Below the pieces are notes generated by a model. The model made no database searches, was not told where the DNA came from, and saw nothing but the letters and a program-made list of their open reading frames with translations. DNA of 26,605 bases from a virus (Duplodnaviria; Caudoviricetes), in IMG/VR virus record IMGVR_UViG_3300027367_000010, positions 1 through 26,605 of that record; one strand, written 5' to 3'. The translations under genes and the position numbers were made by a program. Positions 13,646 to 23,754 of the stretch are shown here, piece after piece. Every line of letters begins with the position of its first letter. Position 1 is the stretch's first letter.

Positions 13646-13674
13646 ATTATCACACATAATACATCAAAAAGCAA
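13646..13674 (-). promoter_or_regulatory. Sigma70-type promoter for the rnh operon
   Basis: TTGCTT-17-GATAAT with TGTGT upstream of the -10. Confidence 0.55.
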
Positions 13675-14113
13675 CGTTTATTTTTTCAATCAAAGCCTCT
13701 TTATGTTTATTGAGATGGGCCCTTCTGACCTTGCACTGGATCCAATCATTATAGTAATCGTCGGATATGATGGCATCACGAAGAAATTGCTCTCTGGCTT
13801 CCAAGTACCCACACTCTGATTTGGTAGTGCACAAGTGTAATATGACTCGTGAGAAGTTTTCCTTCCCATGTTCTTGAATGTCTGCACTGAATCTTTCAGA
13901 TGATCCATAATATTTCTCCCAATCCGATACAGCTTTATAACGTTTGCCTTTACCTTTAACTTGCTTTCTTTTAATTGATACAAAAAATTTCTTTCCAATG
14001 TACTTCTTCCCGTTTAAATTATTGGTGATCATGTATACAAAGCCAACATAAACAGGCTTAGAAGGGTTGAAGTCTTCCGGTAAGGCGAAGACTTCGTTTT
14101 GATAATTCCACAT
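13664..14113 (-). CDS. Single-domain GIY-YIG (Seg-like) nuclease
   Basis: GFVYMITNNLNGKKYIGKK, YYGSS, YLEAREQF, YYN. Confidence 0.85.
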   Translation of the reverse strand: MWNYQNEVFALPEDFNPSKPVYVGFVYMITNNLNGKKYIGKKFFVSIKRKQVKGKGKRYKAVSDWEKYYGSSERFSADIQEHGKENFSRVILHLCTTKSECGYLEAREQFLRDAIISDDYYNDWIQCKVRRAHLNKHKEALIEKINVAF

Positions 14114-21685: not shown

Positions 21686-21693
21686 TATTTATA
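21686..21693 (-). promoter_or_regulatory. T4-type late promoter TATAAATA
   Basis: Exact consensus overlapping the upstream stop codon. Confidence 0.75.
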
Positions 21694-22288
21694 AGCCCAT
21701 TCCATCACGAACTTCTTGCATTAATTCGTCTGCATTGACGTGATTTGGAAGGCCTTGAGTAAATTTTTCTATATCATTATCCATCGCTGCCGCTCTCATT
21801 TTAGAAGCGGACATTCCAGCGGCACCATCCTGATCAGGATCTCTCTCGCCAGCGGATACGACATCAACACCGCCTTCGAATTTATAATACCCATGTTTTG
21901 CTTCAACGCCATTATATTTGTTGACCATACCGTCAAAAGCTTTTACTCGATCAGAACCGACAACCATTGTTAAGTGACGTGTTCCAGAGTTATATTCCTT
22001 TACAAGAATATCGAAGACATGTTTTACTGACATGTCATCCAATATCTCATTTTTCATTTTAAAAATCTCACGCATCCACTTGATCTTGGTACTGAATTTT
22101 AAAGGATTTTTTGCGGGGTCATGGGACTGAGATGCGTATATATGAATCTTTCCGCGCTTCTTAGACGCTTCTTTTTTCATTGCATTGACCAACTTTAAAT
22201 GGCCAATGGTCGGTGGATTAAACCGGCCAAAGGTCATTACAACTATGTCATCCTTAGATTCTCTGAAAAACTCGAAAAACGTCTTCAT
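21689..22288 (-). CDS. Cytidyltransferase-like (HIGH-superfamily) nucleotidyltransferase
   Basis: FGRFNPPTIGH, KNPL, VVGSDR, SAGERDPD, MSASKMR. Confidence 0.88.
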   Translation of the reverse strand: MKTFFEFFRESKDDIVVMTFGRFNPPTIGHLKLVNAMKKEASKKRGKIHIYASQSHDPAKNPLKFSTKIKWMREIFKMKNEILDDMSVKHVFDILVKEYNSGTRHLTMVVGSDRVKAFDGMVNKYNGVEAKHGYYKFEGGVDVVSAGERDPDQDGAAGMSASKMRAAAMDNDIEKFTQGLPNHVNADELMQEVRDGMGL

Positions 22289-22349: not shown

Positions 22350-23588
22350 TTATCCGCGGTTTGGCGATTCCCAACCCTTAATGATATCAGGACTAAAATT
22401 ATTAGATGAAAACTCCAATCTATCAACTAGTTTGACAGCGCCGGCTCGAGCAGTAATCGATACAAACCCTTCTGCACCTGTAACCTTAAAGCCATTTTTA
22501 GTCTTAACAAAAGTATTTATACCGCCAATTTGACTAAGCTTTTTGATCAAAACCAACTTGGCATCGACCAAAGCATTTTGTAAATCGAAGATAGAGACAA
22601 TAGAAGAAGTGGAATGTTTAGTAAAAAATGATAATGTTTCATCTCGCTTTTCCTGCCATACCAATTTGGCCTTTTCAGTCTTAACCTTATCAATGCTAAC
22701 TTGATACTTAGCTTCAATATATTTTTGTAATTCCTTAACATGATTCTTTGTATCTGTAATACGCTGACCTTTACGCACATATGTGTTATTGAACGTATTG
22801 GTCATGATGTTAAGGTCTTTCATGTCAGACATATCTTTTAACGCATTAGAAGAAACCTTACTGAACAACTTACCGGCATTTGATAGGTGCTTTGTAACTT
22901 CATCAGTATCTGCTTTGGTCATTGTTACTGTTCCAGACAGATCATGCAAGTGTGCATCTTGTTGCCATACAGAAGAAACATTCTTTAATTTGGAGGCATC
23001 GACATTAAATGATGCTGACAAGCTCTCGAATGAATCGCCTGAATATGCCGTATGCCATACAACACCAATCTTAGCAGCTTTAATTTTCTTTGCTAGATCA
23101 GATGAAGCTGGCACCGCATACAGGATTGTATTGGGATGAAATGTAATATACTTCTCACCTTCAATCGTCTCTGAACCAAGGTCATTGGTGAACATGAGAT
23201 CACCTTGCAAGATTCCTTTGATACCAACCTTTGGCAACTCTTCAAGAGCTACCTTCAATTTGGCGTTTAAATCACCTGAAGTATCATCATCAATATCCTG
23301 TGGTGTTTTATATACCTTTGGATTCTTGTTGAATATACCTTTCTTGGCAACAAAGAATTTGCCATCAGTAGGATCTGTCCCGGCAAAAATCGCCGGAGCT
23401 CCATCCCATTTAACAGTAATGTCTTGTTCTGTAGTAGTACTGCCAGCTAACATATCGCGTAACGATCGAAGAGCATTGATCGCATTTCTTGCGCCATTAA
23501 CGCCACCATCGATAACTAGATCCTCTAGTCAAAGGTGCGTCATATGTGAATTCTTTGCTTCAGTAATAAACTGTTTGAATGATTTCAT
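22350..23588 (-). CDS. Ligase-fold covalent nucleotidyltransferase-like protein (DUF6267-like), interrupted by an in-frame TGA at codon 20
   Basis: AAGGAGG RBS and ATG 23588: MKSFKQFITEAKNSHMTHL*LEDLVIDGGVNGARNAINALRSLRDMLAG..., in frame with the track ORF; motifs TVKWDG, LQGDL, EGFV, VKLV. Confidence 0.8.
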
Positions 23589-23614
23589 AATCGGCTGTAA
23601 CCTCCTTTTTTTAT

Positions 23615-23719
23615 CTAGACGCTTTGTTTCTTGAACGTCCTACCTCTACGGTATGATTCTGATTGAGTACCTTCAGGAACATATATTGTATCAATTCCAT
23701 CAGTATACCATTTTAATTT
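23615..23719 (-). pseudogene. Remnant resembling a homing endonuclease C-terminus
   Basis: Start-less frame KLKWYTDGIDTIYVPEGTQSESYRRGRTFKKQSV*, similar to the W-Y-x-x-G...R-G-R tails of phage Seg/HNH endonucleases. Confidence 0.55.
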
Positions 23720-23754
23720 TTAGCTTCTGTGATAAATTCTTTAAATGTTATCAT
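23713..23754 (-). other. 13-aa mini-ORF MITFKEFITEAKN*, an abortive copy of the downstream gene's N-terminus
   Basis: Starts 2 nt after the upstream stop; matches MKSFKQFITEAKN at 10 of 13 residues. Confidence 0.75.

Follow-up and report, generated by a model that had tools for sequence, protein, structure and literature searches.

A probable natural stop-hop within a homing endonuclease cassette in the DUF6267 gene of a marine phage

The window analysed here, a stretch of 26,605 nucleotides (nt) from a marine phage of the Caudoviricetes (IMG/VR record IMGVR_UViG_3300027367_000010), carries on its minus strand a gene of the DUF6267 family in which the conserved HxxH[IL]ED motif is split by the nonamer CTT-TGA-CTA (23534-23526). 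A Shine-Dalgarno (SD) sequence, AAGGAGGT at 23607-23600, precedes ATG 23588, from which 19 codons, the last two being CAC and CTT (23534-23532), lead to an in-frame TGA (23531-23529) and a second leucine codon, CTA (23528-23526). Past TGA, the same frame stays open for 391 further codons, to TAA at 22352-22350, and omitting six nucleotides would give a product of 410 amino acids, the length of the uninterrupted allele P0001, to which it is 99% identical. The frame is opened by AAGGAGG and ATG 23588, as a first-pass annotation of this DNA had held, and no SD-like sequence was found upstream of ATG 23453, at which the open reading frame (ORF) track begins the gene.

TGA is a true stop in the window, where the standard code applies (TGA ends 3 of 44 ORFs and TGG occurs 103 times). 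An alternative code or suppressor tRNA is ruled out for the window by this code and by a scan that found no tRNA gene in the window, itself only part of a genome; relatives, moreover, use three different stops. Likewise, a conserved +1 or -1 frameshift product was rejected, as the shifted frames close within approximately 30 codons or show no conserved sequence. A promoter scan returned nothing on the strand of the DUF6267 gene. The features at the locus are as follows.

23713..23754, minus: original gene start, left as a 13-codon mini-ORF (MITFKEFITEAKN, stop) equal to residues 1-13 of P0001
23517..23714, minus: cassette; in runs X1 and X6, 23516 is linked to 23715 through 26 other letters
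23615..23713, minus: about 32 codons left from the C-terminus of a Seg-like homing endonuclease of the GIY-YIG family (tblastn, L005)
23600..23607, minus: strong SD of the replacement start (sequence; GGAGG in 20/21 gapped clusters of relatives)
23532..23588, minus: replacement 5' end, codons 1-19, with the first half of the HxxH[IL]ED motif (sequence; ratio of non-synonymous to synonymous differences, pN/pS, 0.083)
23532..23534, minus: putative take-off codon CTT (Leu19; matched flanks in 24/24 clusters)
23529..23531, minus: in-frame stop TGA (stop in 36/36 DUF6267 loci found with a free middle codon)
23526..23528, minus: putative landing codon CTA (CTA landing also in L212)
23513..23531, minus: 8-bp hairpin over the stop and landing codon (predicted fold of the window; not conserved)
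22350..23525, minus: DUF6267 body (PF19782, phrog_455; E 4e-103, 5e-89), codons 20-410 of the putative product

Alleles and cassette anatomy

The six nucleotides are present in sequencing data, with unbroken contigs crossing the site in 4/4 DNA runs (depths 30, 38, 7.6 and 5), although this evidence consists of contigs, not raw reads, and the runs possibly belong to one campaign, one of them perhaps being the window's source. The gapped site is also seen in other assemblies (L001, L040, L047), and these together with the spanning contigs rule out an assembly error. In the same DNA runs the gapped allele coexists with an empty one, in which 26 nt stand where the window has the 198-nt cassette. 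The empty-allele joint was found at depths of 30 (X1) and 16 (X6), with matching loose ends in X2, X3, X4 and X17, and uninterrupted products are represented by P0001, P0122, P0123 and P0125. Contigs of both alleles thus indicate that the six bases are real and part of a 198-nt cassette replacing 26 nt. P0001 begins with the 13 residues of the upstream mini-ORF 23754-23713, the start of which lies 166 nt upstream of the new ATG 23588, and the body of the window gene is almost identical to that of the empty allele. The first-pass annotation proposed the hop that is favoured below but overlooked both the mobile homing endonuclease cassette, the context that would explain it, and the coexisting empty allele.

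The cassette comprises the endonuclease remnant, a new ribosome-binding site (RBS) and recoded codons 1-22, including the gap. The remnant matches residues 200-230 of the 232 amino acid endonuclease of L005 (tblastn, E 9e-13); on its own it has no Pfam or PHROG family match, while the endonucleases of L005 and L073 match PF19835 (SegE) and PF01541 (GIY-YIG) above cut-off. The GIY-YIG endonuclease gene has a fixed position, for which both occupied and empty alleles are seen, and the window holds a remnant of it only. Remnant tail and spacer are identical to the full-length gene of L073 at 118/127 nt (93%), compared with 65% for the new leader and 67% for the first 120 nt of the body, a disparity that points to horizontal transfer of the cassette. 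A short look-alike stretch is shared by the old start and the endonuclease tail at their junction, so the rest of the endonuclease gene was likely lost, or never copied, through recombination there. Separately, a long bypass from the last codon of the old start to the same codon of the new start was considered; it has no support, and would still need the 6-nt hop.

Run X1 also holds a longer endonuclease form with the same tail (loose end behind 23721), joined to another DUF6267 start, of the L004/L073 type, such that a likely donor lineage co-occurs. At the other end of the gene, a variant C-terminus ending KGFDLRR is found in both a gapped-type and an empty allele (L040, P0124, P0125), suggesting that the 3' end has recombined or carries another polymorphism.

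Gapped relatives, the linked endonuclease and the encoded protein

Gapped relatives were sought in two kinds of scan, the patterns of which require conserved flanks, with gaps sampled only in such contexts. When the flanking codons were free and the middle codon was restricted to TRR, all seven DUF6267 loci had the same amino acid on either side of the stop. When the middle codon was freed, BLASTP assigned to DUF6267 8/13 viral hits with 1-30 extra nt, 25/61 metagenome hits and 3/3 further viral hits, the remaining 41 having no DUF6267 match; the middle codon was a stop in 36/36 of these loci, and a sense codon in 0/36, a count into which duplicates enter, as does L078, which is probably the record of the window itself. 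At 90% nt identity, clustering gave 21 versions, to which L212, L213 and L215 add to make 24. Fourteen of them have CTT-TGA-CTT and four CTT-TAG-CTT, with one cluster each for CTT-TAA-CTT, CTG-TGA-CTT, CTT-TGA-CTA, CTT-TGA-CTC, CTT-TAG-CTA and ATT-TGA-ATT. Other phages, for which the first-pass annotation had advised a search, carry a matched codon-stop-codon at this site, and do so with all three stops.

In 24/24 clusters the flanking codons could be read by one tRNA (CUN/CUN, with AUU/AUU once); they differ only at the wobble base or both change together. TTA and TTG occupy 0/48 flank positions, compared with 38% of leucine codons in these genes, and no cluster mixes leucine with isoleucine, while the intact site accepts both. 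The pattern would be kept by only 7 of the 27 possible single changes, yet all four single-step variants keep it (chance approximately 0.005); the complete bodies of gapped versions are 47-80% identical (13 compared). A stop that is never sense, between flanks that always match, is expected if one tRNA pairs at both codons, and not if Leu-X-Leu were needed. By contrast, HxxH[IL][ED]D has no insertion in 121/128 stored homologous proteins, the remaining seven lacking an N-terminus; the gap is thus missing from 121/121 homologues with this region, the frame resumes after the landing codon, and H18 and D21 are invariant (112 aligned homologues). Together with the 99% identical empty allele, this bears out the earlier view that the window has six extra nucleotides rather than a point nonsense mutation.

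The codon at position 17 (window 23540-23538) has G as its third base in 21/21 gapped clusters (ACG in 17, GAG in 4) but in only 8/52 intact ones; L212 is an exception, and the gaps of a sister clade described below are also preceded by ACG CAT CTT. The start codon appears to be GTG in two gapped versions, L022 and L041, and CTG in L056.

On a quick maximum-likelihood tree of 15 gapped and 68 intact bodies, from which six short clusters were left out, the hop needs nine changes, at least seven of them forced by well-supported branches; the cassette is scattered over the tree of its host gene. Of 21 gapped clusters, 13 have a frame open for 386-396 codons, seven run off the locus and one, L043, stops early, such that the frame is open in 13/14 clusters in which it ends within the locus. 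In uncorrected values that are near saturation, pN/pS is 0.083 over the nine codons before take-off in the 21 gapped clusters, versus 0.12 in 52 intact clusters, and 0.25 over the 23 codons after landing, versus 0.29. The leader is saturated at synonymous sites while its protein sequence is conserved, and the 23-codon segment after landing, which precedes the first internal methionine in most versions, appears to be translated. GGAGG precedes the start in 20/21 gapped clusters, versus 3/52 intact clusters; this strong RBS may offset a low hop rate, or may merely have come along with the cassette. In L043 and L215, the DUF6267 frame diverges just after the KWDG motif; the insert of L043 at this point looks by eye like an intein, and the gene may thus host two mobile elements.

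The endonuclease or its remnant adjoins 16/21 gapped clusters (15 by tblastn, L043 by eye), and is adjacent to 0/77 intact loci, namely those found intact among the top 80 of the 593 relatives confirmed, with one weak match approximately 1 kb off in L154. In four gapped clusters (L022, L064, L071, L076) the endonuclease is almost wholly deleted, while RBS and gap persist; upstream of DUF6267, L071 and L076 still have a duplicate of the old start. A different ORF of 251 amino acids stands in the endonuclease position before a CTT-TAG-CTT gap in L082 (373-1125, minus), possibly a replacement nuclease; it has no Pfam match above cut-off and was excluded from the endonuclease count. A search with the endonuclease itself gave 18 loci, and 12/12 full-length ones with downstream DNA, L005 among them, adjoin DUF6267. 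Cultured endonuclease matches are at most 39% identical among the matches listed.

A sister clade, approximately 37% identical to P0001, contributed five gapped contigs, four from the endonuclease search and one (L200) from a further scan for gaps in which 6/30 hits were DUF6267, and each lies behind the same endonuclease family. Their gaps sit after the glutamate codon of the HxxH[IL]ED motif, with matched codons in 5/5: three (L166, L173, L174) have a 4-nt gap, with GAG, TGA and a landing GAA that overlaps the stop, and two (L167, L200) an 8-nt gap, with GAG or GAA, TGA and a landing GAA. Set apart from these is L209, a 7-nt tandem duplication in DUF6267 with no stop directly after and no endonuclease, which was excluded as a mutation or error.

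The interrupted gene belongs securely to its family (PF19782 profile match of 346 bits against a cut-off of 27), with matches in 464 cultured phage records, mostly cyanophages. The best of these is the Kyanoviridae phage C48C1 (54%), the only one in which the site was read, and there it is intact. In a structure model (predicted local distance difference test score 85.9) residues 1-15 are disordered and residues 19-45 form a helix, which would place the gap at the start of the helix. Foldseek gave no match at E 0.001 or better, its top rows being DNA ligases at E 0.06; the best VIA-align match was RNA editing ligase 1xdn (Z 7.7, root-mean-square deviation 4.8, 181 aligned), followed by several RNA ligases at Z 6.4-6.8 amid helical bundles of similar Z. 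KWDG and EGxV, which we take to be nucleotidyltransferase/ligase motifs, are invariant in DUF6267 homologues. The model leans, weakly, towards a ligase-like nucleotidyltransferase fold of the ATP-dependent ligases for the body.

A probable stop-hop and the alternatives to it

The arrangement is probably a natural stop-hop, likely breaking the endonuclease target while keeping the protein, and as such a minimal counterpart of T4 mobA/gene 60; the matched-codon hop restoring HMTHLED in a protein of 410 amino acids, as first put forward from the window alone, is supported by all the comparative tests run. A free-standing GIY-YIG endonuclease would cut the DNA of the HxxH[IL]ED motif in empty alleles and be copied in, bringing along an RBS of its own and replacement codons 1-22, the insert making the cassette allele resistant to (re-)cutting. 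This insert would have to be skipped, because two residues added between invariant H18 and D21 are presumably not tolerated. The ribosome would stall with Leu19-tRNA in the P site and the stop in the A site; peptidyl-tRNA-Leu would then leave CUU and re-pair on CUA six bases on, with translation resuming at GAG and the 410-residue product having a single leucine at the junction. Hopping is probably of low efficiency, for which the strong RBS would probably compensate. Subsequently the endonuclease gene would decay, here via deletion between the look-alike stretches of the endonuclease tail and the old start, leaving the hop in place. More generally, a family of GIY-YIG endonucleases of T4-like phages is likely to shield its own alleles with the smallest possible coding gaps (4, 6 or 8 nt), hopped by ordinary bacterial ribosomes without RNA structure. 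Nothing points to the further suggestion that the hop sets the ratio of a leader peptide to the enzyme.

The hairpin at 23531-23513 to which the first-pass annotation had drawn attention does form in the predicted fold of the window, as does the lower CACC/GGUG pairing, but it is not conserved, and folding of the region does not exceed chance (z -1.40; 21/200 shuffles as good). Its only compensatory cell among relatives is the window's own CTA pair. Another hairpin, just 3' of the landing codon, is 88% paired with no compensatory change or covariation; it is modestly enriched in gapped alleles (5.3 versus 4.6 of 6 pairs, p 0.003), which also show slightly stronger folding than do intact genes into which an insert was simulated (mean z -1.19 versus -0.58, p 0.027), and shared descent confounds both comparisons. 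Anti-SD pairing after landing is -5.1 kcal/mol in gapped alleles versus -4.6 in intact genes. An internal SD of the release factor 2 type was considered as a stimulator and rejected on the pairing before take-off given below, and a gap of 6 nt is too short to house an SD of its own. With regard to a stimulator in the nascent peptide, the leader is already under constraint as part of the protein.

Several observations weigh against a stop-hop, or against its being efficient and obligatory. RNAalifold found no consensus structure and no conserved take-off stem-loop among 21 representatives, the window hairpin has 64% of its cells paired in relatives, a value that 75/500 shuffles equalled or exceeded, and anti-SD pairing before take-off is the same as in intact genes (p 0.26). 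Stop-hops without stimulators are described as low-level (10.1101/2024.12.09.627546, as excerpted), so the yield may be small. The take-off and landing codons of the window differ at the wobble base, which means that a tRNA-Leu reading both CUU and CUA has to be assumed. Because of shared descent, the 24 clusters do not amount to 24 independent trials, and on the tree the hop label shows more clustering than in shuffles (0/500 as low). The pN/pS values could partly reflect sequence recaptured from intact genes, and the frame of L043 stops after 146 codons, in its intein-like insert as judged by eye. RNA runs X14, X16 and X17 gave one contig each, none across the gapped site, that of X17 carrying the empty-allele junction. 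Finally, 7/12 full-length endonuclease loci (L164, L165, L168-L172; three distinct sequences) precede an ungapped DUF6267 gene in which the motif is deviant; they suggest that substitution may also confer resistance to the endonuclease, and they mean that the gap is not obligatory.

An alternative, which is unlikely, is that the cassette disables a non-essential gene, or leaves a split one the body of which starts near Met45, with the codon pattern a relic of the founder. Coexistence of the two alleles and the near identity of the window body to the empty allele fit a tolerated knockout, as a recent invasion would leave an intact-looking body even without selection, and gene callers do yield truncated forms (P0121, P0124, P0098, each beginning at an internal codon). 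Yet every variant nonamer obeys the codon-stop-codon rule, including the double change ATT-TGA-ATT, protein conservation persists in a leader saturated at synonymous sites, and the gap is retained in four clusters after loss of the endonuclease. The internal ATG has no SD, L064 has no methionine until codon +166, and a start at Met45 would lose nine invariant residues and the helix at 19-45.

Very unlikely is readthrough or recoding of the stop, giving a protein of 412 amino acids with Leu-X-Leu. The gap in the window keeps the frame, and UGA terminates weakly when the next base is C. The products of readthrough and hopping differ by two residues only (Atkins 2016, PMC5009743, as excerpted). 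Readthrough, however, does not account for the use of TGA, TAG and TAA alike in a standard code, and if the insertion were tolerated a sense middle codon would be expected in some of the 36 loci, or an insertion in some of the 121 homologues, where there are none. It also leaves the missing TTA and TTG and the missing leucine/isoleucine mixes unexplained, and it cannot serve for the 4- and 8-nt gaps, which change the frame, while a matched-codon hop covers 4, 6 and 8 nt.

Least probable of all is removal of the six bases at the RNA level, by a micro-intron, by cutting and religation or by polymerase slippage, which would equally restore the protein and protect the DNA and is favoured by a predicted DUF6267 fold closest to RNA ligases, but which needs neither an in-frame stop right after the last codon nor decoding-matched flanks, and is opposed by a direct repeat of just 2 nt in the window, variation at wobble positions, the lack of conserved structure and the fit of gaps of 4, 6 and 8 nt to codon re-pairing.

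Neighbouring genes, known systems and significance

Downstream of DUF6267 lies its usual neighbour, a cytidylyltransferase-like gene; in C48C1 a cytidyltransferase gene is found two genes downstream.

21689..22288, minus: cytidylyltransferase-like gene (PF01467, phrog_3041, phrog_395)

The DUF6267 leader presumably resembles the T4 capsid-targeting sequence, and by analogy the protein may be packaged and injected. Leaders of the form M-x-x-F-x-x-(F/Y)-x-x-E, which we likewise take to be akin to that sequence, are seen at several window starts (25094, 23754, 23588, 22288, 4406). Two other ORFs, both on the minus strand, were identified by eye. One, of 149 amino acids (13664-14113), has a GIY-YIG-like motif (GFVY...YIGKK) and is upstream-adjacent to an RNase H-like gene; the other, of 271 amino acids (1350-2165), has a signal-peptide-like start and several CxxCH motifs, and resembles a multiheme cytochrome c, which is unusual in a phage contig.

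Synthetic stop-hops in which 9 nt are read as one amino acid were reportedly described by Weiss in 1987. The comparisons that follow rest on excerpts of the sources cited. In such constructs, a stop between matched codons allows 9 nt to specify one amino acid (PMC5009743; 10.1101/2024.12.09.627546); their geometry is identical to that of the locus described here, but they are laboratory constructs of low efficiency, whereas the present arrangement is natural, conserved and mobile. Atkins 2016 gives no known occurrences of natural in-frame stop hopping (PMC5009743).

The T4 MobA element combines an endonuclease with a 50-nt bypass, the latter giving protection from nicking and often outlasting the endonuclease (10.1101/2022.08.31.505936). 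As here, a free-standing endonuclease carries its own 5' gene segment (10.1101/2022.08.31.505936), a gap led by a stop lies between matched codons within a conserved motif, insertion has been repeated at one site with the endonuclease decaying and the gap staying, and take-off and landing codons vary within the range of one tRNA. By contrast, the gap is 6 nt and in frame here (4 and 8 nt in the sister clade) rather than the 50 nt of gene 60, the enzyme is GIY-YIG and Seg-like rather than HNH, the target is DUF6267 rather than topoisomerase, and the leader has 19 codons rather than 46. The conserved stem-loops and gap SD of gene 60 were not found here. Some metagenomic MobA elements have GIY-YIG or VSR replacements (10.1101/2022.08.31.505936). 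From sequence comparison, the cassette would thus work like the MobA/gene 60 element without being a member of it, as enzyme family, target and gap all differ.

The nearest short natural case is the 10-nt bypass in Streptomyces phage Hau3's terminase gene, detected by mass spectrometry in Escherichia coli after UUA was changed to UAA (PMC10732093). This too is a short insert in a phage gene, absent in relatives, with a slow A-site codon, but there the codon is a hungry UUA sense codon, the insert changes the frame and its proposed role is regulatory (PMC10732093); the term 'homing endonuclease' is absent from the text of that paper. Similarly, the T4 Seg enzymes are encoded by free-standing GIY-YIG genes between conserved genes and undergo intronless homing (PMC2988022), and the L005 and L073 relatives match the Pfam SegE and GIY-YIG models. 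Seg cleavage sites, however, lie hundreds to thousands of bp from the gene (PMC2988022), whereas the putative cut site here is approximately 55-85 nt from the end of the endonuclease gene, and in the excerpts of that source no Seg enzyme is described as paired with a recoding signal (PMC2988022). The byps of Magnusiomyces mitochondria are likewise mobile inserts neutralised by matched-codon bypassing (10.1101/2022.08.31.505936; PMC5009743), but they are 27-55 nt long, rely on an unused A-site sense codon and a specialised mitochondrial ribosome, and have no endonuclease gene. The literature covered, with subscription journals and preprint supplements largely outside it, yielded no paper on DUF6267 and no description of this locus or of an in-frame stop-hop in nature.

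Very few genes are established cases of bypassing in nature, and systems like gene 60 that span a shorter distance have long been expected (PMC5009743). If correct, the present interpretation would mean that an in-frame stop-hop exists in nature under selection, in an allelic series of at least 24 versions, where such hopping had until now been demonstrated in synthetic constructs only. The locus allows a direct test of whether a bare stop-hop is used and selected in nature, as it offers a ready-made mutant series, with three stops, wobble variants, a leucine-to-isoleucine switch and gaps of 4, 6 and 8 nt, while an almost isogenic empty allele and full-length endonucleases are on hand for comparison. 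It would also explain a class of misannotation, in which gene callers begin such proteins at internal codons. The strategy of pairing an endonuclease with a bypass would extend beyond the T4 topoisomerase, and minimal bypassing would be a common means of immunity for selfish genes in phages, concealed in databases among genes called as truncated or as pseudogenes.

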